Shown here piece after piece: positions 5,843-45,032 of a stretch of 56,535 nucleotides of DNA (within the stretch, counting starts at the first letter, position 1; every line of letters begins with the position of its first letter). A model generated the notes under the pieces. The model did not search any database, had not been told where the DNA came from, and saw only the letters and a list, made by a program, of their open reading frames with translations. The DNA lies in assembly GCA_002841685.1 (NCBI GenBank), contig PHAM01000002.1:1-56535 (forward strand), given 5' to 3'. Source of the DNA: Elusimicrobia bacterium HGW-Elusimicrobia-2 (GTDB taxonomy: Bacteria; CG03). Both the position numbers and the translations under genes were made by a program.

Positions 5843-5844
5843 AA

Positions 5845-16784: not shown

Positions 16785-19268
16785 ATGAATAAAAGTGTAA
16801 AAATGCGTTTTGCCTGTCTGACAGTAGGCGCGGCGTTTTTCATTTTTCATTTTGCTTGTTCCATGCTTCACGCCTACTCCGGTATTCCGTCGTCAGTGAG
16901 TATAAAAGGCGTTTATATAAGCGGTAAAACACCGTCTCATTTGAAGGAAGGCGATGTGGGCTTCTGGGAAGGCGTCGTTTCTTCAATGACCTGGCAGTCA
17001 ACGGGCACTTGCTGGGGAAAGCCGGTGAGTCTGATACCGGGAAACACATACTATTACAAGTATGCGCTTGAATACGGCACCGGCTCTGTGACGACGCGGA
17101 TATGGGAACAAACTAACTTCTGGCATTCGGTTTATGTCGGTTATGAGAATAATGTTTATCTTGACGGCAACTTCACAAAATCAATTCCGGCCTCTTCGGT
17201 TATGGATAACTGGGCGGGGGCTCCCTTCCCCCCGCAGGATCCTGTTGTGGAAGTTGACGACAGCCGCGTAAAAGTTAAATGGACGGTTCCGCATTTCGGA
17301 GGCTTCGGCCTGCTTGACAATAAGGGTTATCTCATTTATCTTTCGACCGACAATATAAACTGGAAAAATTACAACGACACTTCTACGCTGATATCGCCGG
17401 ATGCCGCGCAGGTTGAGATAGAGTCACTAAAAAACAACGCGACTTATTATCTGAGATTAAGATCTGTAGATAAGTACGATTACGCGGATATTGACATAAA
17501 TTCAGAACTCTATCCCGCCTCGTCCGCTGTCCGTACTTTCCGCTGGAATTATTCTCAAACCGTTAAGTTCAGGCCGAATAAGAGGATAAAATGCAGGTTT
17601 GCGCTGACGTATCCGGGACGGAATGAGATTTCCCTGTCGTTGAACGGGGAAAATTACGCCCTTAAAAAGGAAGGGGAATACTACACCTCATGGGTGACGC
17701 TTACGGAAATGGAGACATACAGTTATTCGTACCAAAGTCCGAGCGCGGAAGATCCCTCCGGCGCAAGGCCGGTAAAAATCATTGATATAGACGGCGACGG
17801 AAAGTTCTATGTTTTTGATACATGGGGAGTGAACACGGCGGATTCTCTGCCGGAGGCGATAATCGGCTGGAAAATTGTCGCAAGCACCGGTGATATTAAT
17901 TTTTCATGGAAGAAAAACCCCGAATACGACGATAATGTGACGGTTTACAAGAGCACCGACGGGCTGAATTGGAGTGTTGTTATTTCTACGGGCGGTTCGG
18001 GCTTTTTGTGGAACGTTTCGCTTGCGGGGAAGAAATATTATTTCGCGATAGGTTCTTTTTTACTTCAGTCCGCGCCGCAGGAAGTGGATACATCAACGGC
18101 TTCCGTCGTGAAAATACCGGAGGCGCTTTTTGTAAGCGGAATAGTGGATCAGAAATTTACAGCCGAGCCTTATTCCGATAAGGTAAAAATAACATGCAGC
18201 GCTCCGTTTAAGAATAATGACTCGTTTACCGGTATATACTGGGTTTTAAAATCGACGTATAATCGGAATATCGTTCAGGGGTCGGAGATTGACTGGGAGA
18301 AATATGAATTTGTTGCGAAAAGGAGAGGTTTTTCGCCGGCTGAGGCGCTGAAGTTTTATTCAAAAATTTCGGATATCCCTCTTCAAACATTTTATCTGTG
18401 GAATATGAATATTTTCGGCAATGGCGAAGTTTATTGTTCCAACCCTGATGTATTTGTCACGCCGCAGGAAGTGGATAAAAAAGGAGGTTATTATTGCAAG
18501 ACAGCCAGTATCTTTTTTCCGAAAACGTCGCTTCCCGCGAAAAAGGCATTTTTGACAATATATGACAGAGAAGAGCTCGCCGCGGCAAATAAGTTTAAAG
18601 AACTTTCGGCGAAGATAGAAGCGGCAAATACGCAAGCGGGGCAGATTTCATATCAGCAGGAAATGGCCACTTCTACGATATTTATGTTCAATCTCAGGAA
18701 AATGGACGGTACCTTGCTGGAAGAGGAATTCAGAAGGCCCGTTGAAATAACTCTGCCTTATCCCGCCGGAGCAGACACGGAGAACATCGCCGCTTTTTAT
18801 CTTGACGAGGAATATAATTTTTGGAAGAAGGTACAAATAGGACCGCATTTTGAAAAACCGGAGATAAACAGTTCCAGCGCTACGATTACTTTCAGGACAA
18901 TGCATTTTTCGGTTTTTGCGCTTATGACGGTTGCGGGAGAACCGGATCTTTCAAACGCTGTAATTTATCCCAATCCTTTTAAGCCTTTTGATAAAAAGTT
19001 TGAGACCGGGGCGGTTTACAGCGAGGGGAATAAGTACTCTGGAATTCATTTTACAAAGTTGACTTCAAATACGAAAATAAGGATATTTACTATTGACGGA
19101 GTGCCGGTGAGAGGCGGTTTGCAATCTTCTAACGACGGCAATTGTGTGTGGGATGCCAAAAATGACGATGGAAGAGATGTGTCTTCGGGGCTTTATCTTA
19201 TTCTTGCCGAGGATCCGAACGCGCTTGGCGAAAAGAAATTTATAGGCAAGGCGGCAATAATCCGATGA
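16785..19268 (+). CDS. Secreted multidomain protein (CBM-like + FN3-like modules) with FlgD-Ig/T9SS-CTD-like C-terminal domain
   Basis: GGGAGG RBS before ATG 16785 (track start GTG 16767). Signal peptide MNKSVKMRFACLTVGAAFFIFHFACSMLHA. FN3-like VKVKWTVP...ATYYLRLRSVD. C-terminal YPNPFKP...IRIFTIDGVPV...WDAKNDDGRDVSSGLYLIL. Confidence 0.75.
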   Translation: MNKSVKMRFACLTVGAAFFIFHFACSMLHAYSGIPSSVSIKGVYISGKTPSHLKEGDVGFWEGVVSSMTWQSTGTCWGKPVSLIPGNTYYYKYALEYGTGSVTTRIWEQTNFWHSVYVGYENNVYLDGNFTKSIPASSVMDNWAGAPFPPQDPVVEVDDSRVKVKWTVPHFGGFGLLDNKGYLIYLSTDNINWKNYNDTSTLISPDAAQVEIESLKNNATYYLRLRSVDKYDYADIDINSELYPASSAVRTFRWNYSQTVKFRPNKRIKCRFALTYPGRNEISLSLNGENYALKKEGEYYTSWVTLTEMETYSYSYQSPSAEDPSGARPVKIIDIDGDGKFYVFDTWGVNTADSLPEAIIGWKIVASTGDINFSWKKNPEYDDNVTVYKSTDGLNWSVVISTGGSGFLWNVSLAGKKYYFAIGSFLLQSAPQEVDTSTASVVKIPEALFVSGIVDQKFTAEPYSDKVKITCSAPFKNNDSFTGIYWVLKSTYNRNIVQGSEIDWEKYEFVAKRRGFSPAEALKFYSKISDIPLQTFYLWNMNIFGNGEVYCSNPDVFVTPQEVDKKGGYYCKTASIFFPKTSLPAKKAFLTIYDREELAAANKFKELSAKIEAANTQAGQISYQQEMATSTIFMFNLRKMDGTLLEEEFRRPVEITLPYPAGADTENIAAFYLDEEYNFWKKVQIGPHFEKPEINSSSATITFRTMHFSVFALMTVAGEPDLSNAVIYPNPFKPFDKKFETGAVYSEGNKYSGIHFTKLTSNTKIRIFTIDGVPVRGGLQSSNDGNCVWDAKNDDGRDVSSGLYLILAEDPNALGEKKFIGKAAIIR

Positions 19269-20257
19269 AAAAGAAAATAGGGACGGAGGTAATTAAATTG
19301 CCAAGAATTCCAATCTTTAGAATTAAATTGAGGTCGTTCACGGAAACAATTTCTTGGATAATTGGCATTTTTATATTTTTAATTACCTCCGTCCCTATTT
19401 TTGGAGCCGGAGAGACGGCGCTTAATTTTTTGAGGATAGGAACTTCCGCTCGCGGCGCCGCGCTTGCCGATTCTCTCGCCGCTGATTATTCTGATTCTTC
19501 GGCGGTGGAATATAATCCCGCCACTCTTTTGACTCTCGAAGGCCGGGAGATTCAGCTGATGCATATAAACCTTTATGCCGATATAGATTATGAATCGCTT
19601 ATTTATGTTGAGCAGTTTGATAAATTTAATCTTGCGCTTTCACTGAACTATCTTCATACAAACGCTCTCCGCACGGTGATAGATACTTCTGATCCATACG
19701 GTTATAAAAATATTGGTAAATTCGTTTTTCAGGATAGATGTTTTGCCGCTACATTTACCCCCCGAAAAGGGATATGGGGAGGGCGGGTGAAATATATAGA
19801 GGAACGAATAGAGGATGAGAAAGCAGGCACTCCCGCTGCCGATTTCGGATTTTTAGTTCCGGGTAAATTATCTTACGGGGCGGCGCTATGCAATATGGGA
19901 CCCGAAATCAAATTTATAGATGTTAAAGAAAAATTACCTCAGACACTGCAGATGGCTGTGAAGCTTAATTTAAAATACATATCCCTTTATTCGGCAGGGA
20001 ATTTTTATATTGACAGAAAAACTTCAGGTGCTTGCGCTATGGAGGCGAATATTATAAATGTTGTATTTCTGCGGGCGGGATATAAGTATATACCAGAGGA
20101 TAACGGGGAATTCCCCGGATTTACATTCGGTATCGGAATTAAGATAAGGGAAATAGGTTTTGATTATGCGTTTATTCCCTTCGGGGAATTCGGCGATACT
20201 CAAAGATTTTCGCTACAGGTGAAATGGGGAAAAAGAAAAGGGGACGGAGGTAATTAA
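19265..20257 (+). CDS. PorV/PorQ-like outer-membrane beta-barrel protein (putative)
   Basis: ATG overlaps the stop of the upstream gene (ATGA). An alternative in-frame TTG at 19298 lies 8 nt after GGAGG. The N-terminus is encoded by the mobile element (…WIIGIFIFLITSVPIFGAG). The mature part starts ETALNFLRIGTSARGAALADSLAADYSDSSAVEYNPATL, which resembles the PorV-family N-terminal motif. It is beta-strand rich and ends ...RFSLQVKW plus 9 element-encoded residues. Confidence 0.55.
   Translation: MKKKIGTEVIKLPRIPIFRIKLRSFTETISWIIGIFIFLITSVPIFGAGETALNFLRIGTSARGAALADSLAADYSDSSAVEYNPATLLTLEGREIQLMHINLYADIDYESLIYVEQFDKFNLALSLNYLHTNALRTVIDTSDPYGYKNIGKFVFQDRCFAATFTPRKGIWGGRVKYIEERIEDEKAGTPAADFGFLVPGKLSYGAALCNMGPEIKFIDVKEKLPQTLQMAVKLNLKYISLYSAGNFYIDRKTSGACAMEANIINVVFLRAGYKYIPEDNGEFPGFTFGIGIKIREIGFDYAFIPFGEFGDTQRFSLQVKWGKRKGDGGN
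19274..19401 (+). mobile_element. 128-bp REPIN/MITE-like derivative of the RAYT element
   Basis: Left arm aaaatagggacggaggtaattaa (19274-19296) is the exact reverse complement of right arm ttaattacctccgtccctatttt (19379-19401). The spacer starts attgccaagaattcc (the first codons of the transposase gene, with ATG changed to TTG) and ends ttggataattgg. It lies inside the 5' end of ORF 19265. Confidence 0.85.
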
Positions 20258-20385
20258 ATTGCCAAAAATTCCAAGAATTATAGAAAAATGGAAGCATGGG
20301 GTTTTGAAGTGAAGCGTTTATTTTCTTTAAAAAATCATTGGATAATTAGTATTCTTGTATTTTTAATTACCTCCGTCCCTATTTT
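20236..20385 (+). mobile_element. 150-bp REPIN/MITE-like derivative of the RAYT element
   Basis: Left arm aaaaggggacggaggtaattaa (20236-20257) supplies the last codons and the TAA stop of ORF 19265..20257. Right arm ttaattacctccgtccctatttt (20363-20385) lies in the 5' end of ORF 20288. The spacer has diverged. Confidence 0.8.
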
Positions 20386-23300
20386 TGGAGCAGGCTGGTA
20401 TTCTTCGCTGATTTTAAAATCGGGAGAGAATATCACGAGTTGTATATCCGGCTTCTCCGGAGTGAGCGTTATTTACGCCGGAGGCGTCTATGGAAGCATT
20501 TACAAAATAGATACATCTTCGGATTCGCCAGTTATGACATATATAACGGGGCTCGGTTCCGAAATTACTGATATGATTTACGAGGACGGTATTATATACG
20601 CCGTTAATAATAAATTGTGGCAAATTGATGCAGAGAGCGGTTTTTCCGTGGTGATAGCTACCAATAACTGCTCATATCAAGCAATTATTGTCTGCGGAGA
20701 TCAATTTTATCTCTCGGACGAATACGGCGTTTTGCGGGAATATAATTCAAGTACCGGAGAAATGACCGAAATCGGTTCTTCGGCTCTTGGTATGACGGAT
20801 ATAGCATATTATAGCGGCGCTGTATTTGCCGTCAGCAGAGACAAATGCCTGTACAGATTTTATAAGAATGCTGGTCAATGGTTACGGGAAAAAATATATA
20901 ATGCCGGAACAAAACTTTATACAATTACTGTTTCTTCTTTTTCCGGCGAGAGCAGGCTTTATATCGGCGGCGCTGATTCGTATCTAAGGGAAATTTATTA
21001 CAAAAACGGCTGGAAAATATTTCCCGTTGATTACACCTCGGGAGGAGTGAACGGTATAGTGACAGCGGATATTACGGGGAGTGATAATATCTATCTTTAT
21101 ACCGACGGAGGAAGCTGGTGGGAATTCTCAAATTCAACTTCCGGATATGTGAAGAAAAATATACTGAATTACGGAGCAGGAATAAATACGGCTTTGTCGG
21201 CGGGGGCGACCCTTTATTTTTTTACCTCGGATAGTTATATGAGTGCGCTGTATTATTCGTCTGTCGCGCTTTCAGGCAAAGGATACAAGCATCAGCCCTC
21301 GGGCAGTCTTGAAATCGGCGGAGCGCCGTTCCCTTACAGAAATCCTGTTTTCCCGCGGAAGGACGAAAAAACAAGTTTTTATTTCACGGATTCGGCAAAA
21401 TCGCTTTCACTTTCGCCCGTGCTTTACTGGAAGCAGAAGAGCTCTTCGTCCTGGCAGACATCGTCATTTGTCTATAAAGAAACGGGCAGCTCTTATTCCG
21501 TTTATTTTACAAGTTGGACTTTTAATTATTCCACGGGGACTGTTATTGATTATTTTATTGCCGCCGGAGGTTATTATATTTTCCGCTCCGGCGAAGATAA
21601 GCTGTCCAATAACTCAAATTATACTTTCGGCATTTCTTCGGCCGCCGCCGCCGCGAAACCGTTTACTTTTATGGTCGCGGGCTTAGGAAATTGTTTTCAT
21701 TATCCCGAAACATCTTTCGGCAATACGGCTTCAATGAGGGGGCCGCGGAATCCTCTGTCCGGGGATGAAATCACTTTTTTCGTAGGCAATCAGGCGTCAG
21801 GTTCGGGGAATTACGGAAATATGAACGGTGGGCAGTTCCATTATCGCGAAAACGGTGTATGGAAAACTTCGCCCATAAACTGGAGTGAAGATATAGGAGA
21901 TTATAAATACTGGAAAACAGTATTAACGTCGACGGGGATGACATCATATTATTTTTCGGTAACTTATGATGATCATAACACTACCTATGTTTATGGTGAT
22001 GACAGTGTTTCCGTGGCGTGCGGCAGTGAGGATGAGGCAAAGGCTTCTCCTTTTACGCTGAATTTTTCCACTGTCGCGTTTAATATAAACCTAACGCCGG
22101 CGGCCACGACTCCTCAGAATTTGCTGATTTATGAAGCCGGCACGTTTATTAAAGCTTATGAAAGCGCCGTAAGTTCTTTCGCAAGCGTGTCGCTTTACAG
22201 CGGCAATTTTGAACTGATTATAAAAGACGGCAATTATCAGACGATTTATGACACTGTTTCATTTTCTTCGGTTTCAAAAACTTATAACCTTTTATATTCG
22301 TCGACGCCGCATTCATTTACGCTCGATGGAAACTGCGAAGGGAATTTTAGCGCGAACGAACTGATAGGGGTTGATTCGCAAAGTGATTCTTCCTGGGGAG
22401 CAAAAAACGATATTTATAATTTGTGGGCCACATTTGATAAGGATAATTTATATCTGGGGCTCAAGGGAGTGCTTGAAAATAATTCCGTTGTTATTTATCT
22501 TGATTGCGGAGATTACCTTGGATCTATAGACGACGCTTCCGCTCTGCCGTGGGCGCAGTCCCGGAATCATAAATTTCCTGACGGTTTCCGGCCGGATTTT
22601 CAGTTTACGTTTTGGGATTTTACAGGGGGGTTTTTTTACAGAATAACTTCCTCAACGACTCTGGATGATGTTACATCGCAGGTTTCTCAGGCGGTTAAAG
22701 GAGGCGGCAGCGGCGAGACGGGTTCCCTTGAAATTAAAATACCTTTTTCTGTAATATACAACGGAATAACGGCATTCGGAATACCCGCCGGCGCGAAATT
22801 AGGCGTTGCCGCCGCTGTGTGCGGAGGAGACGGCACTTCGGCTAAAGACATTATTCCCGATCAGTCCGCGCCTTGCGGCGATACCTTTGACGAATTTTCT
22901 TTTGATAAATGGTTTGTTCTGCCGCTTGATGAAGATATCGACGGCGTTCCTGATACAGGCAGGTATATTGCAGATATAGCGTATTCAACATCCTCCGCGG
23001 CGGCTTCACAGATGGCCGTATCTTCGGGAGAGATAAGCTATAGTAATTTCAACGCGCCGGAATATTTTTACAAAGAGCGTGATATGCCTCTGTCGGTTTA
23101 CAGCGTTGATGCCGACAGCGCCGTTTTGAAATGGAAAAATGCCGCCGAAAGCGTTTATGCTACTTTATATCCGGCGCTTAATGCGTCAACGTTTACATTC
23201 GCGGTGTCTGCGGATTATGTGTTCGGCAGTATTGATTATTATTTTGTCCTCTATAAGGGAACGGAGTCTCTGAATACCGGTGTTTACAACATAGATGTTA

Positions 23301-23968
23301 TGCCTGAAATTGTTTTAACCCCGGGAAGCAGAGAATATTCAACCGGTAAATCTAAAATTATTTTTAAGGAGCCGCTTGAAGACAGCGCAAAACTATTTTT
23401 CCTTGAGCCGGAATCATTAATTACGGATAATATTCTTCCTATTAATCCCGAAATCAATATTTCTACGGATGGTATGCGCTTGCCCGCGGAACTTTATGAA
23501 ATAGAAGGGAATATTCCGCCCGCGTCACTGACTTTGTCTTACTTTGATGATGCGGATGAAGATAAATACGCCGTTTATTTTTATGACGGAAGTAATTGGA
23601 TTTACAAAAACTCGTCGCGTGATATATCCGCCAATACTGTAACTTTTAGCGTAAATCAACACGGGAAAGCCGGTATATTTAAAATAACATCAGCGTCTCT
23701 CGTTTCGGGGAAAAATATTTCGTCCATCAGCAAACCTGTTTTTAATCCCGGTCTCGGAGAGAAGATAGAATTCAATTTCATTCAAACCCCTGCGGTAATT
23801 AAAATTGAGATATTTGATATGAACGGGAGAAAAATAAAGGAGTTGTCGGGGGAATCAAGTTGGGACGGCAGGGATCGGAACAATAACACTGTTCCGGCAG
23901 GAGCATATCTTTATCATCTGGAAACAGATTCCGATGATTTTTGGGGCACCTTAGGCGTATGGAAATAA
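20288..23968 (+). CDS. Large secreted protein: beta-propeller-like N-terminal region, beta-sandwich modules, CBM9-like module, FlgD-Ig/T9SS-CTD-like tail
   Basis: The element-encoded hydrophobic N-terminus is HWIISILVFLITSVPIFGAG. About 6-7 blade-like repeats of ~45 aa follow (IYKID, LWQID, LREYN, LYRFY, LREIYY). CBM9-like module: LDGNCEGNF...NLWATFDKDNLYLGLKG...VVIYLDCGD...SLEIKIPFS. C-terminal tail: FNPGLGEKIEFNF...IKIEIFDMNGRKIKEL...WDGRDRNNNTVPAGAYLYHL. Confidence 0.7.
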   Translation: MEAWGFEVKRLFSLKNHWIISILVFLITSVPIFGAGWYSSLILKSGENITSCISGFSGVSVIYAGGVYGSIYKIDTSSDSPVMTYITGLGSEITDMIYEDGIIYAVNNKLWQIDAESGFSVVIATNNCSYQAIIVCGDQFYLSDEYGVLREYNSSTGEMTEIGSSALGMTDIAYYSGAVFAVSRDKCLYRFYKNAGQWLREKIYNAGTKLYTITVSSFSGESRLYIGGADSYLREIYYKNGWKIFPVDYTSGGVNGIVTADITGSDNIYLYTDGGSWWEFSNSTSGYVKKNILNYGAGINTALSAGATLYFFTSDSYMSALYYSSVALSGKGYKHQPSGSLEIGGAPFPYRNPVFPRKDEKTSFYFTDSAKSLSLSPVLYWKQKSSSSWQTSSFVYKETGSSYSVYFTSWTFNYSTGTVIDYFIAAGGYYIFRSGEDKLSNNSNYTFGISSAAAAAKPFTFMVAGLGNCFHYPETSFGNTASMRGPRNPLSGDEITFFVGNQASGSGNYGNMNGGQFHYRENGVWKTSPINWSEDIGDYKYWKTVLTSTGMTSYYFSVTYDDHNTTYVYGDDSVSVACGSEDEAKASPFTLNFSTVAFNINLTPAATTPQNLLIYEAGTFIKAYESAVSSFASVSLYSGNFELIIKDGNYQTIYDTVSFSSVSKTYNLLYSSTPHSFTLDGNCEGNFSANELIGVDSQSDSSWGAKNDIYNLWATFDKDNLYLGLKGVLENNSVVIYLDCGDYLGSIDDASALPWAQSRNHKFPDGFRPDFQFTFWDFTGGFFYRITSSTTLDDVTSQVSQAVKGGGSGETGSLEIKIPFSVIYNGITAFGIPAGAKLGVAAAVCGGDGTSAKDIIPDQSAPCGDTFDEFSFDKWFVLPLDEDIDGVPDTGRYIADIAYSTSSAAASQMAVSSGEISYSNFNAPEYFYKERDMPLSVYSVDADSAVLKWKNAAESVYATLYPALNASTFTFAVSADYVFGSIDYYFVLYKGTESLNTGVYNIDVMPEIVLTPGSREYSTGKSKIIFKEPLEDSAKLFFLEPESLITDNILPINPEINISTDGMRLPAELYEIEGNIPPASLTLSYFDDADEDKYAVYFYDGSNWIYKNSSRDISANTVTFSVNQHGKAGIFKITSASLVSGKNISSISKPVFNPGLGEKIEFNFIQTPAVIKIEIFDMNGRKIKELSGESSWDGRDRNNNTVPAGAYLYHLETDSDDFWGTLGVWK

Positions 23969-23973
23969 ACAAA

Positions 23974-24101
23974 AAAATGGGGACGGAGGTAATTAATTTG
24001 CCAAGAATTCTAATTTTTAGAATTAAATCAAGGCTGTTTGCGGGAGCAATTCCTTGGATAATTGGTTTTTTTATATTTTTAATTACCTCCGTCCCCATTT
24101 T
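23974..24101 (+). mobile_element. 128-bp REPIN/MITE-like derivative of the RAYT element
   Basis: Left arm aaaatggggacggaggtaattaa (23974-23996) is the exact reverse complement of right arm ttaattacctccgtccccatttt (24079-24101). The spacer is colinear with the copy at 19274. Confidence 0.85.
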
Positions 24102-25332
24102 TGCATATTATAGTTTTGTGGATTTGAAGACAAAAAGTTTGGCCGGGTCACTTGTCTCCTCCGCCTATTCCAATCCCGCTTTGATATGCGGAGAGAAGTC
24201 GCCGTCGCTGTATGCGGAATACAGCGATTTATTTTACGGTTTAAATAAACTTGATAATCCTGTCCAGGGATATTATCCTCCCGATGCGGATAAGATGGTG
24301 CTCGCGGCGATTTTTCCGTATAAAAACTATGGTATGGGAGTGAGCCGTAATTTATTGACCACGCCCATACACAAAGAATCAAAAACTTCTTTTCTGCTGG
24401 CAAGGAATCTCAATGACTTGATAATTAGAAGATTTGAGGAAAGTATAGATGTCGCCGCTTCGTTTAACATCTGCTCTTTAGAGTTTTCTCATTTCCCGTA
24501 TGAAAATTATTCCAACTCCGCCACAACATTTTCCTGGGATTTTTTTATCAGTGCCAAATTCACCGACGGTTTTGAATATGGAATGGCTTTTAAAAACCTC
24601 GGCAATACGGATATAGGTTTTAAGGAAAAAGAGCCTTTGCCCCGCGAATTTAATTTTTCGCTGGCTAAAAAAATTTCAAATATCAAACTGATTTTTTCTT
24701 ATATGGATTGTCAGCAAATACCGGATTACGGGTTTGCGGCCGAATATAATATAAAAGGATTGAATATCATGACGGGAATAAATTCAAACTATTTTTCCGC
24801 GGCCGCTCAGTTCCTTCTAAAAGAGCGCATAGAATTTTCATTTGGGGTTTCCGTGCCTTTTGTCGGAGACATAGCTTTTCAGCCCGATATAGCGGTTAAA
24901 TATTATTTCAGTACAGCCGTCGCGCAGGTTGATAAATTAGGTGAAATGAAAATTTATTATAACAGGGCTTATGAAGCCTATGTCGATAAGCGTTTTGAAG
25001 AAGCGATCCAAAATTGGGAACAAGTGCTTAAACTGAATCCGGAGCATATTCTCGCCAAGAAAAATATTGTTAAAGCCCGGGCAGATTCAAAGAAATATTA
25101 TTTTAATTTAGCCACTTACGAATATAAAATGGGCAATTACGAAAAAGCCATAGATTTTTGGCAGAAAGTTCTTGCTATAGATCCTTCTCATGATTTATCA
25201 AAGCAGAAGATAGAGAAGGCGAGAAAGCGCCTTGAATCCGGAGAGAAACTTTTACCGGCGGTTCCGCGGGATTATGAAAAATTAAAGGAAGAGGGCGGCG
25301 ATAAAGCTCCGCGCGTTGAAAATGAGCGTTAA
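23977..25332 (+). CDS. Putative outer-membrane barrel protein with C-terminal TPR repeats
   Basis: The track start 23941 overlaps the upstream gene. ATG 23977 (or in-frame TTG 23998, 8 nt after GGAGG) lies inside the element. N-terminus MGTEVINLPRILIFRIKSRLFAGAIPWIIGFFIFLITSVPIFA. The segment SLAGSLVSSAYSNPALI resembles the N-terminal motif of the neighbouring barrels. Two TPR units are present (YYNRAYEAYVDKRFEEAIQNWEQVLKLNPEH; ATYEYKMGNYEKAIDFWQKVLAIDPSH). Confidence 0.55.
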   Translation: MGTEVINLPRILIFRIKSRLFAGAIPWIIGFFIFLITSVPIFAYYSFVDLKTKSLAGSLVSSAYSNPALICGEKSPSLYAEYSDLFYGLNKLDNPVQGYYPPDADKMVLAAIFPYKNYGMGVSRNLLTTPIHKESKTSFLLARNLNDLIIRRFEESIDVAASFNICSLEFSHFPYENYSNSATTFSWDFFISAKFTDGFEYGMAFKNLGNTDIGFKEKEPLPREFNFSLAKKISNIKLIFSYMDCQQIPDYGFAAEYNIKGLNIMTGINSNYFSAAAQFLLKERIEFSFGVSVPFVGDIAFQPDIAVKYYFSTAVAQVDKLGEMKIYYNRAYEAYVDKRFEEAIQNWEQVLKLNPEHILAKKNIVKARADSKKYYFNLATYEYKMGNYEKAIDFWQKVLAIDPSHDLSKQKIEKARKRLESGEKLLPAVPRDYEKLKEEGGDKAPRVENER

Positions 25333-26362
25333 TGTAAAAAAAACAATTGATGTTAAGTTGTTGAGCATATATAGATTTTTACTGATTGCTTTCTATTTTT
25401 CATTTTTTATGGCGAGCGCACTTCTTTGCGCGCCGTATCACAGGATTGATATAGACGGGAATCTTGATGAATGGCCGGAGGGGGAAAAGATTGCGAATGA
25501 TATTCACGACGGAGAAGTCATGAATAGAATAGACGCTCTTTACGTCACATGGGATGCGGACAATCTTTACATAGGGGTTAACTATAAACTTGATGACTGC
25601 GGCATGCTGCTTTATCTGGATACTGATTACGGCTTGTCATCCGGCTTTGATGACCTGACAAAAATAGACACATGGAACAAAGGCGCGAAGTTTTCGGCGG
25701 GCGGCTTTCTTCCCGATTTTATGTACGGTTCATGGGACGGTGACGGCGGCAGTTTTTATCAGATTACGAGTTCCCTATCAGCGTCGGGCGTTTCCGCAAA
25801 CTGTAAGACGGATTTCAGTTCGTATGCTCCGGGCACCGAAATATCCATAGGATGGGATACCCTTTTTCCTTCTGGTTTTCCGGCGGGAACAAAAATCGCC
25901 ATGTTTTGCAGTCTGGCCGACGGAACTGCTCTTGCTCTTGACTGCGCGCCGGATAATATTGCGGTTGTGCTTCCTTTAGTGGATACCTGCACGGTGATAA
26001 ACTGTGATTCAAACAGCGATGGTGTGCCGGATAGTTTAAGTTCTTCTAATTTTGAAATTTCCTATGTGCGAATGGCTAAAATATTCTCACCCAATGCGGA
26101 CGGCATAAACGATGATTTGAATATAACTGTCGCACTCACGCAGAGTGCGGATATATATATGAAAGCTTTCAATATTGAAGGAAAAAAAGTGTGGCAAAGC
26201 GCCGGACATTCAGCTGAAGCGGGGGAAACGACGATGACGTGGAACGGCAGGGATTTTTCGGGGGCGATGATTAGAAACGGTGTTTATATTCTGAATATCA
26301 GGGCGGTGAATTCATCGGGTGAAGAAGTGTATAAAAACAAGCCGGTGGCGATAGTCAAATAA
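25322..26362 (+). CDS. Secreted CBM9-like-domain protein with FlgD-Ig/T9SS-CTD-like tail
   Basis: The track start 25316 is TTG; ATG 25322 is used here. Signal peptide ...LLIAFYFSFFMASALLCA. CBM9-like module: IDIDGNLDEWPEGE...LYVTWDADNLYIGVNY...LLLYLDTD...EISIGWDTLF. C-terminal tail: FSPNADGINDDLNITV...IYMKAFNIEGKKV...WNGRDFSGAMIRNGVYILNI. Confidence 0.75.
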   Translation: MSVNVKKTIDVKLLSIYRFLLIAFYFSFFMASALLCAPYHRIDIDGNLDEWPEGEKIANDIHDGEVMNRIDALYVTWDADNLYIGVNYKLDDCGMLLYLDTDYGLSSGFDDLTKIDTWNKGAKFSAGGFLPDFMYGSWDGDGGSFYQITSSLSASGVSANCKTDFSSYAPGTEISIGWDTLFPSGFPAGTKIAMFCSLADGTALALDCAPDNIAVVLPLVDTCTVINCDSNSDGVPDSLSSSNFEISYVRMAKIFSPNADGINDDLNITVALTQSADIYMKAFNIEGKKVWQSAGHSAEAGETTMTWNGRDFSGAMIRNGVYILNIRAVNSSGEEVYKNKPVAIVK

Positions 26363-26363
26363 A

Positions 26364-27230
26364 ATGATAAAAAGATTTGAAATTAAAAATAAGGGAGTGA
26401 AGAAATACTTAATGTCCGTGGCGCGGTTTGATGCGCTGTCTGTTTTAATTATTATTTTCGCGTTTTTAATTTCCTTTCCGGCAGCAGCCTCTTTTGAAAT
26501 GTGCCCCGTCTCCGCGGAGCTGCTGGGGAGGGGCGGCTGGTCGGTCGCCGATGACCGTTTGTCCAGTCTTGATAATTCTGCGGTTACGAGCGAAGTTTTT
26601 AACTGGGAAGCCGGCAGGGCCAATTATTACGGAATAAGCGAACTTAACGGAGGATTTTTGTCATTGCAGATACCGTCCAAAGCGAACAGTTTTAATTTTA
26701 TATACTCCACATTGAAATTTTCTTCAGTTTATCAGGAGAGTGTTTATTCGTTTGCTCTGGCGAAAAATCTGACAAAAAATCTGAACGCGGGCCTGCGTCT
26801 CAACACATACCGGATTGACATCGCGGAATTTGAAGACGGTATTAACACCCGCACAATGTATTCGAATTACGATTTCGCGATTCTGCGCGAAGGGCAATAT
26901 TTTAATTTCGGAGTCTCTTTCAAGCAGCTTTCTTCAAAAGATGTGACGCTGAAAAGCATACCGGAGCGAAATTCTCAGGAAATTTGCTACGGGATTATGG
27001 TTAAACCTGTTAAGGGAGCGAATCTGGGTTTGGATTACGAATTCGGTGAACCGCTGAAGGCCGGGGTTGAAGTTGAGGTGGCGGATGCGCTTAAATGCGA
27101 GATTGGAATAAGAAAAAATATGTTTACGCTCGGATTTTCGCTGAGGATGCCGGGGTTTAGGCTTAATTTTTCAACACTTCTGCACACTGAAATGGGCGAA
27201 ACTTATTTTATATCCATAAGCGGAAAATGA
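26364..27230 (+). CDS. Small putative outer-membrane beta-barrel protein (PorV/PorQ-like N-terminal motif)
   Basis: Starts 2 nt after the upstream stop (alternative ATG 26412). Signal peptide LSVLIIIFAFLISFPAAASF. The segment SAELLGRGGWSVADDRLSSLDNSAV is followed by alternating-hydrophobic strands. Confidence 0.45.
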   Translation: MIKRFEIKNKGVKKYLMSVARFDALSVLIIIFAFLISFPAAASFEMCPVSAELLGRGGWSVADDRLSSLDNSAVTSEVFNWEAGRANYYGISELNGGFLSLQIPSKANSFNFIYSTLKFSSVYQESVYSFALAKNLTKNLNAGLRLNTYRIDIAEFEDGINTRTMYSNYDFAILREGQYFNFGVSFKQLSSKDVTLKSIPERNSQEICYGIMVKPVKGANLGLDYEFGEPLKAGVEVEVADALKCEIGIRKNMFTLGFSLRMPGFRLNFSTLLHTEMGETYFISISGK

Positions 27231-28738
27231 TAACGCATATAAAAACGATTAAGAAAATCCTGACGGTTTCGCTTCAAGCGCTGTTTCTGACGGCTGTTTC
27301 CTGCGGTGTTTTGAGAGCATATTACATAGACGGATATTATGAGAGTTATTGTGAAGCTCAAAGAGACGGAGAATACAGGTTTAATATTTCGCAGCCCAAG
27401 CATTATCTGCAGATGAATCTATGGGCTGACCCGCTGCCGTATTCGGGAATTTATTCCCAGTTTTCGGCTTCTACTTTGGAAGAATCCGCTCGCATAAAAT
27501 TTGACAGAGGTTATGCCGAAAAAACTTTTTTTGAGAAAACCAAACTCATGCTGCTTTACAAAGAGGAACGTCACTGGATATCCTCGCCCTTGCTTTATCT
27601 GATTGATACGGGAAAAGTGCAGAGGAACGCACGGGGGATAAGAGCCGAAATGTGGAATGTTGGCGGTTTTGCGGGGCAATTGATTGCTTCAAAAGACGCG
27701 TCCGAAAAAAACGATGAGTGGTATGGCAACTATTTTGACACTGATGGAAATTCAGTTGTTGGAAGGCTGAATTATTCTTATGGTATTTTTAAAATCGGTT
27801 CTGATATGATTAAACGCGAAAAAAGATACGAGAAATACGATTCCGCCGGAGCGTTTTTAAGCGATACAAAATATGGGAATACGGTGAATTCCGCGGATAT
27901 GAGTTTGTATTTCGGAAAATTTACACTGCTTGCCGAAGCCGCCCGCAGTGAATCGGACTGGCATGACACTTCGGACGACAACGGCGCATGGCAGGCTGAA
28001 ATCAGAGATTTTGTTTACGGCCCGCTGGGCTTAAATTTATCTTATTTTGATTACGGCAAAAATTTTCACGTGCAGAGTTCAAAAAAGTTTTCGGGTTATG
28101 ACGGCAATTCCGAATTCGGCAGGAAAGGCTTTTCCGGTGAATGCCTTTTCCTTGTGCCTAAAAAAGCTGTAAATTTGACATATAAATATTCAGCTTATAA
28201 GGCCGAAGGGATAAGCGTTTCAAACAATACGGATTTGAGAGAGGATTATAATGCGGTTTATTCCGGAGAGCAGAATAAAAATGTATGGAGTTTTACCGAA
28301 TTGTATATGAGGATGATGGGCGGTATAAACATGAGATTGGGTTTTGAAACCAAATCCGGTGATGCCGACGCCAGAAATTTCCTTTTTCAACTTGACGGTG
28401 AAACCCCGCTTTATTACTGCGGTTTGGTCGCAAAAGTTGTGGATATCGGCGGTGAAACTTATCCCGGCCAGAAACTTGTGCTGGCGGCGGAGCAAAAAAT
28501 TAATATAAGCGACAGACTACAGATGTTTATGCGTTTGGCTGACGCGAGAACTGACTCTCTTTCATGGAGAAGCGGTTTTTTTCAGCTCAAATACTTTATA
28601 GGTTATGATTTTGAAATATATCTGGAATGCGGTCAATCATGGCCCACGGAATCTCTCTATTCCAGCACGTCATTTTCGGATAACACTGGCCTGGATTTTG
28701 ATAAGGTTGTGAAGTTTACGATGAAGATGAATTTTTAG
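27227..28738 (+). CDS. Putative outer-membrane beta-barrel protein (503 aa)
   Basis: ATGA overlap with the upstream gene. Signal peptide ILTVSLQALFLTAVSCGVLRA. It is rich in Y/G/D/N strand-turn patterns and has a C-terminal ...VKFTMKMNF with a terminal Phe, as in the OMP beta-signal. No family recognised. Confidence 0.45.
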   Translation: MITHIKTIKKILTVSLQALFLTAVSCGVLRAYYIDGYYESYCEAQRDGEYRFNISQPKHYLQMNLWADPLPYSGIYSQFSASTLEESARIKFDRGYAEKTFFEKTKLMLLYKEERHWISSPLLYLIDTGKVQRNARGIRAEMWNVGGFAGQLIASKDASEKNDEWYGNYFDTDGNSVVGRLNYSYGIFKIGSDMIKREKRYEKYDSAGAFLSDTKYGNTVNSADMSLYFGKFTLLAEAARSESDWHDTSDDNGAWQAEIRDFVYGPLGLNLSYFDYGKNFHVQSSKKFSGYDGNSEFGRKGFSGECLFLVPKKAVNLTYKYSAYKAEGISVSNNTDLREDYNAVYSGEQNKNVWSFTELYMRMMGGINMRLGFETKSGDADARNFLFQLDGETPLYYCGLVAKVVDIGGETYPGQKLVLAAEQKINISDRLQMFMRLADARTDSLSWRSGFFQLKYFIGYDFEIYLECGQSWPTESLYSSTSFSDNTGLDFDKVVKFTMKMNF

Positions 28739-28748
28739 AAAATGGTAG

Positions 28749-29492
28749 AAAATGGGGACGGAGGTAATTTAAATGCCAAGAATTCCAAGATTTACAATTA
28801 ATGATGGGTTTTATCATGTACTATGCAGAGGGCATAATAAGCGGGAAATATTTCATGAGGATAGTGATTTCTTAAAATATTTGAAAACGCTGAGAGAAGC
28901 GAAGACTGTATATAGTTTGAAGATTTATCATTTTTCACTAATTCCCAATCATGTGCATTTGATAATAAATGCTCAAAAAGGTGAAGATTTAACAAAGGCG
29001 ATGAGGTTTTTAAATCAGAATTATGCTCAATATTACAGAGCTAAATATGGCGGTTGCGGATATGTTTGGCAGGACCGATTCAAAAGTTTTTTAATACAAA
29101 GTGGAATCTACCTGATACGGTGCGGTATTTACATAGAGCTGAATTCCGTTATGGCCGGACTTGCGAATAATCCCGAGGATTATAGGTGGTCAAGCTGCGG
29201 CGTTTATGTTAGCGGAAAGAAAAGTAATTTAATTGATATTGATCCGGAATACGCGGCAATTTCGGAAAATAAGGATGAACGAAGAAGAGTGTATTCGGAA
29301 TATTTAAGGGACGGATTAAAAGAAAAAAGGTCTTTGCAAAGATATTTCAGGGACGGCGTTTATGGAGACGAGGGTTTTGTTGAAAAACTAAAAAAGAGCG
29401 GCTTACAGCAAAGAACCTGGCATAAAGGTAGACCTAAAAATGATTAGAAAACTTGGAATAATTGGAAAATTAATTACCTCCGTCCCCTTTTT
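28749..29492 (+). mobile_element. Full-length REP/RAYT-type unit: HUH-Y1 transposase gene bracketed by the family's inverted arms
   Basis: Left arm aaaatggggacggaggtaatttaa (28749-28772). Right arm ttaattacctccgtcccctttt (29470-29491). ORF 28773..29447 lies between them. The short copies share both the arms and the adjacent internal sequence. Confidence 0.8.
28773..29447 (+). CDS. IS200-like/COG1943 HUH-Y1 transposase (REP-associated tyrosine transposase, RAYT-like)
   Basis: GGAGG lies 8 nt upstream, inside the left arm. Motifs: MPRIPRFTINDGFYHVLCRGHNKREIF, HUH motif PNHVHLII, YVWQDRFKS, YIELNSVMAGLANNPEDYRWSS. Confidence 0.8.
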   Translation: MPRIPRFTINDGFYHVLCRGHNKREIFHEDSDFLKYLKTLREAKTVYSLKIYHFSLIPNHVHLIINAQKGEDLTKAMRFLNQNYAQYYRAKYGGCGYVWQDRFKSFLIQSGIYLIRCGIYIELNSVMAGLANNPEDYRWSSCGVYVSGKKSNLIDIDPEYAAISENKDERRRVYSEYLRDGLKEKRSLQRYFRDGVYGDEGFVEKLKKSGLQQRTWHKGRPKND

Positions 29493-31164
29493 TCTTTGTG
29501 CTGCGTTCGGAGAGGAGTATGAATTAAAGTATTATGCGCCGAAAGCGGAAAAAGTTAATATAGCGGGAGATTTTAACGGCTGGAACCCCGACGAATTTAC
29601 TATGGATAAAACTGAGGGGGGCTATTTTCGCAAAACGCTTGAACTTGAGCCGGGGATTCACGAATACAAAGTGATAATTGACGGCGAGTGGCTGAACGGA
29701 GCAAATCTCAAATACGATACAGCGCTGCGGCAGACAATAATAACTTCAAATTTTGCGTGGTCGCCGAAAATATTCTGGAGCGGAAAATTTCTTGTGAACG
29801 TTTCCTCCTCATCCGCTGAAAGCTGCCATTCGCTTCAAGGTAAAATAACACTCAACAACAATGTTTCGGGGATGTTCATTATAAATTCTTCCGGGCGGGA
29901 TGACCGATTAAATTCTAAGGTGGAAAAGCTCTCCATGGTTTACAGAGCAGGGCTTTTTGATTTGAACTCTTTTTATAATCTGCGTGTTTTTCAGTCACCT
30001 GATCCCATGAGGCTGCTTCAAAGACAGTCACCTGCGCCTCTGCGGCAGCAGGAGATTGTTTTTTGCGATGAGACCAATCCCGCCGAAGACTTCGGCCTCG
30101 GTATGCAGGGGATCCTTATGGGATTCGGGGGCGAGGGCATTACGAGCGCGAACTTATTAATCAGCGATGATTATGAGACCGAAGAAGATACTCTTTTCGC
30201 TTCGGCCGGCATAGGCGGCATACGCGCGGAATATCTTTTGAAAAAAGGGATTGATTTTCCTTTCGCATCGTCCAGCCACTGGTTTCCTGATCCCGATGTT
30301 GCGCAGACATGGTTTGGAAGTTCCAACGCTCTTGATTGGTACAAGGGCTTTAACGAAGAAAGCGAATTATCTCTTGACGCGCAGGCTGAGCAGGGGCGGG
30401 CTGTTTATTTCGGACAGTGTGTTCTGATAAATAAAATGCTGCATGCAGTCCGCTGGAATGAAGGAGGCCTCGGAGATTCGGGCATTGATAAGAAGTGGCG
30501 TTTCTATGAAGCTAAAAAATATACGGCCGGCGTGAAATACAAAGGCCCTGTTTCCGCACAGTGCTCATACGCGTCGGAAAACGGAAAATTCTCGGAGTTC
30601 TGGAATTTTAATACGAAGAGCGAAAAATATTCTTTTCTCGCGAGGTGGAATTTTGCTGACTCGTATATAGGCGCTAAAACAGCGATAATAAAAAACCATA
30701 TTCCCGCAGGCTATAATGTGCATGATGATTTTGATCCGTACAGCATAAATTATTACTACGGAAAAACAGGAAGGTACGAAAGCTGGAAAGAATACTGGCT
30801 CCTGGGTAACTTCAAGGGGCGCAATTATAATCTAAAATTAGCCGCTAAATTTTTCCCGGCCGAAAAAATAAAAGAAGCTGTGATAACGGCCGAAAAGAGC
30901 ATCTCGCTTTTTTCATTTAAATTTTCACCCATGTATTTTTCAGACGGTGTGAAAAATTATTTATGCAGCTCATTTTCGGTAGGCGTTAAGAAAGGCGCTT
31001 TAAGTGTTGAAGCGGGAGCGGGAATGTCGCCGGAAGATTTTTCTTTGACTGATGAGAGTGATAGAAGGGAGGATTTTTTGTATAATCAGAACAGTTGGGA
31101 TAAGGGCTATGAACTTCTTAGAGAACAGGAGAAAATATGGTTAAGAGCTGTTTTAAGTTTCTGA
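29440..31164 (+). CDS. CBM48-like module fused to a putative outer-membrane beta-barrel
   Basis: The start overlaps the transposase 3' end. The N-terminus MIRKLGIIGKLITSVPFFLCAAFG is encoded by the element's right end. CBM48-like module: YELKYYAPKAEKVNIAGDFNGWNP...HEYKVIIDGEW. The ~480-aa C-terminal region is strand-rich and ends ...IWLRAVLSF (terminal Phe). Confidence 0.55.
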   Translation: MIRKLGIIGKLITSVPFFLCAAFGEEYELKYYAPKAEKVNIAGDFNGWNPDEFTMDKTEGGYFRKTLELEPGIHEYKVIIDGEWLNGANLKYDTALRQTIITSNFAWSPKIFWSGKFLVNVSSSSAESCHSLQGKITLNNNVSGMFIINSSGRDDRLNSKVEKLSMVYRAGLFDLNSFYNLRVFQSPDPMRLLQRQSPAPLRQQEIVFCDETNPAEDFGLGMQGILMGFGGEGITSANLLISDDYETEEDTLFASAGIGGIRAEYLLKKGIDFPFASSSHWFPDPDVAQTWFGSSNALDWYKGFNEESELSLDAQAEQGRAVYFGQCVLINKMLHAVRWNEGGLGDSGIDKKWRFYEAKKYTAGVKYKGPVSAQCSYASENGKFSEFWNFNTKSEKYSFLARWNFADSYIGAKTAIIKNHIPAGYNVHDDFDPYSINYYYGKTGRYESWKEYWLLGNFKGRNYNLKLAAKFFPAEKIKEAVITAEKSISLFSFKFSPMYFSDGVKNYLCSSFSVGVKKGALSVEAGAGMSPEDFSLTDESDRREDFLYNQNSWDKGYELLREQEKIWLRAVLSF

Positions 31165-35510: not shown

Positions 35511-36772
35511 AAAATCAAAAATTAAAATTATTTGTTTTTTTTATCGCCGCTATCGCCGCAATAAATTCCTGCGGAAGGCCCGGCGCGGAGGGAAAGGATA
35601 TAAAGAAAGTTGTTCTCTGGGAAACATACAACAATGAAGAGCACAAAGAGCTTGAAAGTATTGCAAGGGAATTTGAAAAAAACAATCCGGGAACACAGAT
35701 AAGCGTTCAGAGAGTTCCGTGGGGCGGTCATGAGTCCAAGCTTATGACGTCAATGATAACGAATACGGCGCCGGATATAGCCCGTGTGGATGTCGCTTTT
35801 CTGCCGCGCCTGGTGATATCCGGTTCTGTTTTGGAACTGACGCAGTATGGGGAAATAAATACGGAAGATTATGTGAAGGCAGCGATAAACTCAAATGTGT
35901 GGATAGAAAACGGCGTTAAAAAAATTTACGGTTTGCCCGATCAGACAACAGGCGCCGCGCTTTTTTACAACAAAAAAATGTTCAGGGCAAGCGGTATCAA
36001 ATCCCCGCCTGAAACATGGGACGAGTTCCTCGTAGCGGCGAAACTGCTGACGAAAGATAAAAACGGCGACGGACGTCCCGATCAGTTCGGCTTTGCCATG
36101 GATAAGGAACTGTGGTGGACATTTCCGTTTTTTAACACATACGGAGTGAAGTTTCTAACGGATGACGGAAAAAGATGCATCCTTAATTCGGAAGCCGGCG
36201 TTAGGGCTCTGCAGTTTAAGGTGGACCTTTATCAAAAATATAAGGTTGAGGCTGGCGCCTGGCAGAGCGGCGCGATCGCGCCTGATACGGGCTTTATTAA
36301 CGAAATGTACGCGATGATTTTAACAGGGCCCTGGAATATAAAGAGATTTCGGGACGCGGGACTGGATTTCGGAATTGCCCTTATTCCGCGCGGTCCGGCC
36401 GGCACTTCAACAAATGTCGGAGGCTCTAATATGGTTGTTCTTAAAAAAGCCCGCCATCCCGAACTTTGTTTTAAATTTCTGAAATATCTGACCTCTGACC
36501 GGGTTCAGGCAAGGTGGGCTTCTGATCTGACTCAGATTCCGGTTAACATTAACAGCGCAAAATACATAGATTTTTCAAAGCAGCCGGACATAGAAATTTT
36601 TTTTGAACAGATGAAAACGGCAGTTGCCCGTCCTAAAGTTGTTTCTTATGCGGCTCTTGCGAATACGGTGAATCCTTATTTATATGCAGCGCTTGCGGGC
36701 AAGAAAACAGTCAAAGAGGCTCTTGATACAATTGCTGAAAAAATAGATGAAGAAGTCCTTGTTGAAAAATAA
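35507..36772 (+). CDS. Extracellular sugar (maltodextrin-type) ABC substrate-binding lipoprotein
   Basis: ATG 35507 overlaps the upstream TGA (ATGA). The track start 35396 lies inside the permease gene. Lipobox AAINSC. Family-1 SBP features: KKVVLWETYNNEEH, ITNTAPDIARVD, GLPDQTTGAALFYNKKMF, LTGPWN. Confidence 0.85.
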   Translation: MKNQKLKLFVFFIAAIAAINSCGRPGAEGKDIKKVVLWETYNNEEHKELESIAREFEKNNPGTQISVQRVPWGGHESKLMTSMITNTAPDIARVDVAFLPRLVISGSVLELTQYGEINTEDYVKAAINSNVWIENGVKKIYGLPDQTTGAALFYNKKMFRASGIKSPPETWDEFLVAAKLLTKDKNGDGRPDQFGFAMDKELWWTFPFFNTYGVKFLTDDGKRCILNSEAGVRALQFKVDLYQKYKVEAGAWQSGAIAPDTGFINEMYAMILTGPWNIKRFRDAGLDFGIALIPRGPAGTSTNVGGSNMVVLKKARHPELCFKFLKYLTSDRVQARWASDLTQIPVNINSAKYIDFSKQPDIEIFFEQMKTAVARPKVVSYAALANTVNPYLYAALAGKKTVKEALDTIAEKIDEEVLVEK

Positions 36773-44945: not shown

Positions 44946-45032
44946 TTTGTGCTGTTTGGAAGCGTCCGCTCTCATGCGGGCATTGGAGGATAAATGACAA
45001 GCGCGAAGAGGATCCGTCTGGGGAAGGGTTTG

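Follow-up and report, generated by a model that had tools for sequence, protein, structure and literature searches.

Secreted proteins with T9SS-like tails and neighbouring PorV/PorQ-like barrels in an alpha-glucan locus of an Elusimicrobiota-affiliated bacterium: a candidate surface-anchoring arrangement

The main finding obtained in this work concerns a block of seven genes, A1-B1-A2-B2-A3-B3-B4, located in a 56.5-kb stretch of DNA (contig PHAM01000002.1, positions 1 to 56,535, hereafter the window) from an uncultivated Elusimicrobiota-affiliated bacterium, HGW-Elusimicrobia-2. The seven open reading frames (ORFs) lie co-directionally on the + strand between nt 16785 and 28738, and their order, overlaps and gaps agree with a preliminary description of this DNA (Table 1). 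A1, A2 and A3 are predicted secreted proteins with tails resembling the C-terminal domain (CTD) of type IX secretion system (T9SS) substrates, B1, B2 and B3 are small barrels of PorV/PorQ type, remotely so in B2 and B3, and B4 is a larger predicted barrel. Our findings suggest that each PorV/PorQ-like barrel anchors the neighbouring CTD-tailed protein non-covalently on the cell surface as part of a starch-capturing complex, a role that, by analogy with known pairs, we consider modestly probable on balance. The analysis shows which genes are present, the families they belong to, their synteny and the co-occurrence of tails with barrels; from these we infer physical binding, surface location, sugar binding, a role for B4 and, above all, a route across the outer membrane (OM).

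At least for the A1-B1 type, the tail-barrel association is a real and specific one, and widespread. We used the last 189 residues of A1, here called the A1-type module, as a query against metagenome contigs and scanned the 80 loci returned with barrel hidden Markov models. A PorV-family barrel was directly adjacent to the two-domain module in 43 of the 55 testable loci (78%), versus 3 of 21 testable loci for CTD-only matches, and it is from this co-occurrence that we conclude on its reality and specificity. The possibility raised earlier, as one that would refute the pairing, that the tails do not co-occur with barrels in other genomes is not borne out for this module. An overlap of exactly 4 nt was found in 27 of 46 tail-barrel pairs, and all 40 tail-adjacent barrels that were checked matched both NF033709 and the PorQ model; four of these 40 are fused to tetratricopeptide repeats (TPR) and two to an OmpA-like peptidoglycan-binding domain. 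At one locus (L007) the A1-type module ends a protein of 9032 residues, followed by a PorV-like barrel, and at another (L003) it is carried by a 455-residue protein with a PorV+TPR barrel upstream, the pair adjoining prepilin-peptidase, SurA-like and TPR genes. Good support for cognate pairing exists only for A1-B1, with somewhat less for A3-B3; for A3-B3 the evidence is synteny within the clade together with one further locus (L025), and for A2-B2 within-clade synteny only.

All three tails appear, from profile and motif comparisons, to belong to the T9SS-CTD/FlgD-Ig superfamily, mostly below the curated thresholds, in agreement with the CTD-like tails of the preliminary description. Over its last 109 residues, A1 matches the C-terminal part of the NCBIfam PorZ model (E 2.7e-11), with a whole-model score of 42.7 vs a cut-off of 260, and the tails of A1 orthologues match FlgD_ig in 6/6 and CHU_C in 3/6 cases; Pfam gives no family for the domain that precedes the CTD. 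The A3 tail scores 37.6 bits with CHU_C, the type B CTD model (cut-off 27), and 27.0 bits with FlgD_ig (cut-off 27), falls below TIGR04131 (17.5 vs 35) and matches the C-terminus of PorU (E 1.2e-4). The matches of the A2 tail are sub-threshold, with 22.5 bits for CHU_C (cut-off 27), 18.1 for FlgD_ig and 22.7 for the type A model TIGR04183 (cut-off 23). Alignment with orthologues resolved three distinct but related tail subfamilies, each conserved among its orthologues, with a common strand pattern, [IM]x[IA][FY]xxxGxx[VI] ... W[DN][GA][RK][DN] ... GxY ... [IV][IVW][KR], at the C-terminus. The literal regular expressions given in the preliminary description for tails and barrels match none of the six proteins, because their spacings are off; a loosened core is all that is common, including N[PS]A in the barrels. 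Outside the tails, residues 675-890 of A2 and 40-238 of A3 are 32% identical (E 2.8e-15). Pfam gave no match for this common domain, and its profile showed a weak match to CBM74 of the starch-adherence protein Sas6 (E 0.004, 47 columns). Searches of PDB sequences with A1, A2 and A3 returned nothing meaningful.

Among the barrels, B1 passes the curated cut-off of the NCBIfam PorV/PorQ model NF033709 (121.4 bits, cut-off 90), and among equivalog models it is nearest to PorQ (68.5 bits, below the cut-off of 220). B2 and B3 themselves lie below the NF033709 cut-off, and the comparison of profiles indicates that both are remote PorV/PorQ members at the superfamily level, with weaker support for B2. 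For B3, which has no direct Pfam or NCBIfam match, the family compares with that of B1 at 93% in hhalign (E 3.3e-7, 230 columns, signal peptides removed), a search with its profile among 1.8 billion representatives yielded 142 relatives, 50 of the 53 sampled relatives match NF033709, and the orthologue in locus L025 matches this model directly (E 2.1e-9). For B2, the barrel part (about residues 44-310) compares with the B1 family at 75.5% (E 2.4e-5, 76 columns, signal peptide and TPRs removed) and the full-length protein at 97%, and B3 compares with B2 at 79%. The TPRs at the C-terminus of B2 are clear (TPR_1, 54.8 bits; about residues 320-420) and presumably periplasmic; the same barrel+TPR architecture occurs in a protein with a precomputed PF19572 PorV match (P0008) as well as in the four fused barrels counted above. 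PorP/SprF models (TIGR03519/PF11751) matched none of B1, B2 and B3, and TIGR03519 matched 2 of 6 B3 orthologues (E 1.3e-3). The small ORFs can thus be described as PorV/PorQ-like, as proposed, B1 by direct score and B3 and B2 by profile comparison, and the suspicion that the block encodes no barrels of any OM protein family finds no support in B1, in the homology of B2 and B3 or in the barrel model of B4. Among the 53 PorV-family relatives of B3, we also observed that 10 are fused to a ComEA-like helix-hairpin-helix and a few to GspK-like, TPR or OmpA-like domains; because of these fusions, PorV-type barrels are suggested to be modular OM anchors in several systems.

The small barrels could alternatively be FadL/UPF0164-type uptake channels or general OM proteins, with generic Ig domains as tails and an adjacency that reflects a shared operon only. 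B1 does match Toluene_X/FadL (19.9 bits) and, like its relatives, UPF0164; a route for maltodextrin across the OM is needed upstream of MalEFGK; and the FadL-like OM proteins of T. pallidum, which combine a FadL-superfamily barrel with a C-terminal alpha-helical TPR extension as in B2, are regarded as transporters (PMC8407342). No CTD-tailed neighbour has been described for the treponemal proteins, and the similarity in sequence is marginal. Against this explanation, the adjacency of A1-type module and barrel recurs in many unrelated contexts, mostly with the 4-nt overlap, is far rarer for CTD-only matches, and includes giant proteins that have nothing to do with starch, such as that of L007, while three solute channels in addition to B4 would be redundant in one locus. 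We therefore regard this explanation as improbable.

The pairs are also conserved in position. Relatives with 60-95% identity (L001, L012-L015 and L017-L019) share the order A1-B1-A2-B2-A3-B3-B4-(Y1 transposase)-CBM48, and the same order, split over contigs, is found in the metagenome-assembled genomes (MAGs) AUK224 and AUK228 at about 45-50% identity. The conserved locus extends in relatives as A1...B4-CBM48-MalKFGE-GH13-GDE, and a contig with 31% identity in B4 still carries a MalE-like gene followed by A3-like, B3-like, B4 and CBM48 genes. The pair synteny in related MAGs, which had been suggested as a check, is hence that of a seven-gene block conserved inside starch loci, and because the block is embedded in this conserved alpha-glucan locus, a surface-anchoring role for a starch-binding complex is reasonable. 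In the GTDB representative set, close B1 proteins were found in only five species-level genomes, all labelled Elusimicrobiota or 'bacterium', the other matches being ordinary PorV genes of Balneolia. As a separate observation, the closest MAG (L001) shows a mosaic of DNA identity to the window between 16670 and 25221, with 94% in A1-B1, 68-74% in A2 and 65-80% in the giant amylase upstream; this mosaic suggests recombination or fast evolution of surface proteins.

Several described systems provide precedents. Substrates with a type B CTD, 12 of them in F. johnsoniae, are often linked genetically to cognate PorP/SprF-like 14-strand FadL-type barrels that serve as their shuttles and anchors (PMC9143113, PMC12618676). 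The 14-strand barrels of the FadL family include both PorV, which binds type A CTDs, and PorP-like proteins, which bind type B CTDs. PorP anchors PG1035, and SprF, encoded next to sprB, anchors SprB (PMC9143113). On the surface, PorV holds PorU and PorQ holds PorZ (PMC5562754). The statement in the preliminary description that an iterated cargo with a dedicated barrel is foreign to the canonical T9SS therefore has to be withdrawn: type B CTD-PorP/SprF, PorU-PorV and PorZ-PorQ are its precedents (PMC9143113, PMC12618676, PMC5562754). Of the proposal of an anchoring or export module for a starch complex, the anchoring function holds up as reasonable, and the distinctness from T9SS layouts does not. 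As in the type B systems, a cargo gene lies beside the gene of a dedicated FadL-type barrel, the arrangement is iterated, and the A3 tail and, below threshold, that of A2 match the type B model CHU_C; in those systems the barrel binds the uncleaved C-terminal Ig-like domain and so anchors the protein on the surface. Their periplasmic TPR/peptidoglycan-binding partner PorE (PMC9143113) is echoed here by the TPR and OmpA-like fusions of paired barrels, although PorE is a separate protein and the TPR is here part of the barrel protein. The barrels themselves differ, being of PorV/PorQ and not of PorP/SprF type, with only weak TIGR03519 matches in a few relatives, and the lineage lies outside Bacteroidota and FCB.

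In P. gingivalis, the attachment complex of the T9SS contains surface proteins that retain their CTD and are held by a PorV/PorQ-family barrel (PMC5562754), and the A1-type tail is nearest to the PorZ CTD as B1 is to the PorQ model. They are not orthologues (PorQ 68.5 vs 220; PorZ 42.7 vs 260), the cargo bodies are unrelated to the beta-propellers of PorZ or the sortase of PorU, and the association is with starch use here and with attachment of A-LPS (anionic lipopolysaccharide) there. The arrangement is thus of a known kind, a CTD cargo with a cognate FadL-type anchor barrel, and is distinct in its PorV/PorQ-type barrels and its lineage outside the FCB phyla, in its threefold use in a starch locus, in the additional large barrel and in the wide metagenomic spread of the A1-B1-type pair. 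Two other systems were considered and rejected because their defining domains are absent: for two-partner secretion, which the preliminary description had likewise set aside, there is no Omp85/POTRA or TPS-domain match in the seven proteins (Pfam, NCBIfam), and for Slam the domain order of B2 is reversed, the barrel preceding the TPR, with no DUF560 match (TPR_Slam, E 0.011).

Given these precedents, an ordinary T9SS must be considered, in which a full system is encoded elsewhere in the genome, A1-A3 are routine substrates and B1-B3 are transient shuttles at the SprA translocon, equivalent to PorP/SprF. The layout equals that of a type B CTD with its cognate shuttle, the tails match T9SS CTD models, and the names that the NCBI annotation gives to these proteins are all of T9SS type: a fragment in the 90% cluster of A2 is a 'T9SS type A sorting domain-containing protein', the A3 orthologue of the AUK228 MAG a 'gliding motility-associated C-terminal domain-containing protein', and 'PorV/PorQ family' is also used in records of related MAGs. 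T9SS genes have been reported absent outside the FCB phyla, however (PMC11285876); the MAGs of close relatives are labelled, by their submitters only, Elusimicrobiota, Candidatus Omnitrophica or 'bacterium', and NCBI does not place Elusimicrobiota under the FCB group. No T9SS core gene (SprA/Sov, PorK/L/M/N, PorU etc.) was found in the window, nor among the precomputed Pfam labels of related loci, a scope narrower than the genome, and the barrels are of PorV/PorQ and not of PorP/SprF type. An ordinary T9SS is, in our view, unlikely, though the least so of the competing explanations. We searched the literature for PorV, T9SS or such pairs in Elusimicrobia and Omnitrophota and found no relevant description; a preprint on giant genes of Omnitrophota reports type II-like loci accompanying large surface proteins and does not mention PorV-like genes.

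We hypothesize the following for the anchoring of A1-A3 by B1-B3. The three cargos would be exported by Sec as multidomain proteins, each ending in an Ig-like domain of T9SS-CTD/FlgD-Ig type, and each barrel, on the model of PorQ-PorZ, PorV-PorU and the PorP/SprF-type B CTD proteins, would bind the uncleaved tail of its neighbour and hold the cargo on the cell surface. Tight translational coupling would match the amounts of cargo and anchor, and the TPR of B2 may make periplasmic contacts. The displayed proteins would act with the neighbouring CBM48 proteins and surface GH13 amylases to capture starch or glycogen at the cell surface, and the predicted beta-sandwich domain common to A2 and A3, with its faint CBM74-like similarity, might there help to bind alpha-glucan. 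B4, a putative large plug-less barrel, is the best candidate for a maltodextrin channel feeding MalE-MalFGK. The cargos may cross the OM through B4, through a type II-like system or through a canonical T9SS encoded at another site of the genome.

B4 has no Pfam or NCBIfam match. Its AlphaFold2 (AF2) model is an all-beta barrel of about 24 strands without a plug domain (pLDDT 68.7, pTM 0.62), which favours, at the level of a model, the larger barrel proposed earlier; the best Foldseek matches are FimD/PapC ushers and TonB-dependent transporters (TM 0.43-0.51), and the C-terminus, ...KFTMKMNF, has the typical ...MNF end. Likeness to an usher pore, the persistence of the A3-B3-B4 adjacency down to 31% identity and the fact that no other translocon is visible in the window would all agree with a self-contained export module, in which B4 is a dedicated OM translocon and the PorV-like barrels collect CTD cargos, a minimal T9SS-independent analogue of SprA+PorV. 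Yet every B4 homologue found lies in a starch locus beside CBM48 proteins, which fits a sugar channel, and tail-barrel pairs elsewhere (L003, L007, metagenome loci) showed either no match to B4 or no comparable gene next to the pair. Since, in addition, confidence in the B4 model is only moderate and no energy source is apparent, we consider such a module the least probable of the alternatives.

Some observations weigh against the anchoring of each cargo by its neighbouring barrel. The window has no T9SS core gene by which cargos of 350-1200 residues would cross the OM. Most tail matches are under curated cut-offs, the pairwise BLASTP comparisons of the tails are not significant (E 0.26-0.79), and searches of Pfam and PDB gave no confident sugar-binding or catalytic domain in A1-A3. 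The AF2 model of B3, built on an alignment of 6 sequences, is all-beta with about 13 strands and is unreliable (pLDDT 38.6). The assignment of pairs is ambiguous, since a contig of AUK228 (L002) that reads B1-A2-B2-A3 lacks an A1 gene directly in front of B1, and the barrel precedes the tailed gene in L003 and L074. Finally, B1 of relatives that lack the repeat described below ends in ...RFSLxxxF, with the typical terminal aromatic residue of OM proteins, whereas here and in close relatives it ends in ...RFSLQVKWGKRKGDGGN; the repeat has put W and nine residues in place of that terminal aromatic, which might impair assembly.

A second finding is the presence of a repeat at the gene junctions that, together with a Y1 transposase gene, has the layout of REPIN/RAYT systems: arms flank the transposase in inverted orientation, and four inverted doublets stand elsewhere (Table 1). 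The palindromes are 135-160 nt long, with a left arm ...AAAATGGGGACGGAGGTAATTAAATTGCCAAGAATTCC... and a right arm that is its reverse complement, and fold as long hairpins (z -5.6 to -8.4); the arms around the transposase form an inverted repeat of 61 nt with 75% complementarity, and the 15-nt core of the repeat has 12 matches vs 0.01 expected. The transposase matches Y1_Tnp of Pfam (46.5 bits, cut-off 23), shows HVH and YRWSS motifs in its translation and reaches 63.4 bits with NF047646 REP_Tyr_transpos, under the cut-off of 80. As in REPIN-RAYT systems (PMC3337134), two inverted REP-like arms and a spacer form a long hairpin, one Y1 (HUH) transposase gene stands between inverted copies of these arms, and orthologous sites retain the element by vertical descent. 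It differs in that its transposase is below the RAYT cut-off and in that its arms overlap coding sequence, the right arm being translated.

The left arm contains GGAGG and the start position of the transposase, which is ATG at the transposase gene itself but TTG in the doublets. The right arm, when in frame, encodes (F/I)LITSVP(I/F)F (e.g. LITSVPIF), a stretch that forms the hydrophobic core in five predicted signal peptides, those of B1, A2, B2, a 574-residue CBM48 protein and a 772-residue GH13 protein. At the transposase gene, the right arm also provides the beginning of the CBM48 protein encoded next. The repeat supplies the start codons and the N-terminal 45-50 residues of B1, A2 and B2 (48 in B1) as well as the last nine residues of B1, and the 8-nt gap between A2 and B2 is itself repeat sequence. 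Every close relative carries it at these junctions, and AUK224, AUK228 and L025 lack it. Orthologues in element-free MAGs have ordinary, unrelated signal peptides followed by the same mature N-termini (AGETA..., WY(Y)S..., YYSF..., EY/EF..YYAP...). Paralogy was rejected as the source of the N-terminal motif common to B1, A2 and B2, the motif being repeat-element sequence. These element-free relatives show overlaps of 4 nt (A1/B1) and 16 nt (B1/A2), and the tight coupling of the genes is therefore ancestral; that the ATGA overlap of A1 and B1 is an artefact of the repeat was rejected, since relatives without the repeat keep the 4-nt overlap. The repeat-encoded signal peptides constitute a finding independent of the tail-barrel pairs and, arguably, a more unusual one; the term 'signal peptide' was not found in the REPIN/RAYT literature that we searched. 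Separately, the AUK228 MAG lacks the repeat of the window but has, in this locus, two ORFs (L002:13465-14787 and L027:2626-4626) whose 5' extensions contain a different repeated stretch, coding for ...KRTPYLISPL[KE]GGRKRGGIFPYQLV...; this stretch may represent another REP-like family at gene junctions.

If the pairs do act as anchors in a phylum without T9SS, the interaction of CTD and barrel would be a more general, and probably older, mode of display in diderms than the T9SS itself; the surface proteomes of uncultivated bacteria could be predicted from tailed genes that overlap a PorV-family gene by 4 nt, and the locus would exemplify a design for a starch-capturing surface complex that is neither Sus-like nor lipoprotein-based. 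The repeat, too, has a wider bearing: if five exported proteins do owe their signal peptides to translation of a REPIN-like element, a selfish repeat would here have been recruited into coding sequence in an unusual manner. One may go further and speculate, with little confidence, that CTD tail and PorV/PorQ-like barrel form a stand-alone, T9SS-independent display system, widespread in environmental bacteria outside the FCB phyla and later recruited by the T9SS for its attachment complex, which would here be used three times for starch capture, with OM passage via B4 or a type II-like system and with the REPIN exapted for the ribosome-binding site, start codon and signal peptide of five genes.

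Table 1. Positions of the genes, domains and repeat elements discussed (nt of the window)
Feature	Position	Strand	Description
A1	16785-19268	+	827-aa secreted protein with ordinary signal peptide; weak fn3 match
A1 C-terminal module	18699-19265	+	pre-CTD domain of ~90 aa, then PorZ-like Ig-fold CTD
B1	19265-20257	+	PorV/PorQ-family OM barrel, presumably of 14-strand FadL type; ATGA overlap with A1
A2	20288-23968	+	1226-aa secreted protein; 30-nt gap after B1 is repeat element
A2 central domain common to A3	22310-22960	+	~215 aa
A2 CTD-like tail	~23735-23965	+	sub-threshold CTD matches
B2	23977-25332	+	divergent PorV-like barrel with C-terminal TPR; 8-nt gap after A2
A3	25322-26362	+	346-aa secreted protein; 11-nt overlap with B2
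A3 domain common to A2	25436-26080	+	BLASTP to A2
A3 CTD	~26072-26359	+	CHU_C, FlgD_ig
B3	26364-27230	+	288-aa divergent PorV/PorQ-family member; 1-nt gap after A3
B4	27227-28738	+	503-aa predicted large OM beta-barrel; ATGA overlap with B3
REPIN-like palindrome, A1/B1 junction	19269-19403	+	encodes B1 leader; DNA hairpin -30.1 kcal/mol, z -7.75
REPIN-like palindrome, B1 stop to A2 start	20230-20388	+	encodes B1 C-terminal extension GKRKGDGGN and A2 leader
REPIN-like palindrome, A2/B2 junction	23969-24103	+	encodes B2 leader; hairpin -33.3 kcal/mol, z -8.39
REPIN-like palindrome	36765-36909		fourth doublet
RAYT-like Y1 transposase gene	28773-29447	+	inverted arms at 28749-28809 and 29431-29497
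Further REPIN-like arms	5844-5894 and 44889-44951		

The seven genes are probably one transcription unit of envelope genes inside the alpha-glucan utilisation locus. They are preceded by a regulator of LacI type, an amylase of family GH13 and a GH13/FN3 protein of 2619 aa, and B4 is followed by the Y1 transposase, three proteins with CBM48, MalK and ABC components resembling MalF/G/E, a further GH13 and a debranching enzyme, the + strand carrying every sizeable gene of the window. The 442-nt gap upstream of A1 contains terminator-like and promoter-like sequences, which are consensus matches only and barely above shuffles, and an Rfam scan of the window gave no match. The Sus systems of Bacteroidota, a functional analogue, combine surface glycoside hydrolases, non-catalytic surface glycan-binding proteins, an OM conduit and inner-membrane import. 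The locus described here combines such parts under a LacI-type regulator; it differs in having no SusC/SusD pair, in importing through a MalEFGK ABC system and in a predicted attachment by CTD-barrel pairs instead of lipidation.

Other observations concern the neighbouring genes. The 574-residue CBM48 protein (29440-31164) consists of an N-terminal CBM48 and about 480 residues of unknown fold, ends in ...LRAVLSF and lies directly after B4 in all relatives seen, even at 25% identity; it could be one more part of the starch system in the OM. From an ATG at 47599, an open frame of about 2980 residues runs off the end of the window (56535). It is the third of three ORFs (at 46694, 47175 and 47599) with a common N-terminal MNKLAESR... 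segment, and its N-terminal region (...TIDASLADWADDEKLG...FYFTWDANNFYFAY) resembles the domain common to A2 and A3. Near the beginning of the window, a Na/Pi-cotransporter/PhoU gene is bracketed by direct repeats (11-107 and 1915-2096) that have no Rfam match and agree over 34 nt with 94% and over 53 nt with 87% identity.

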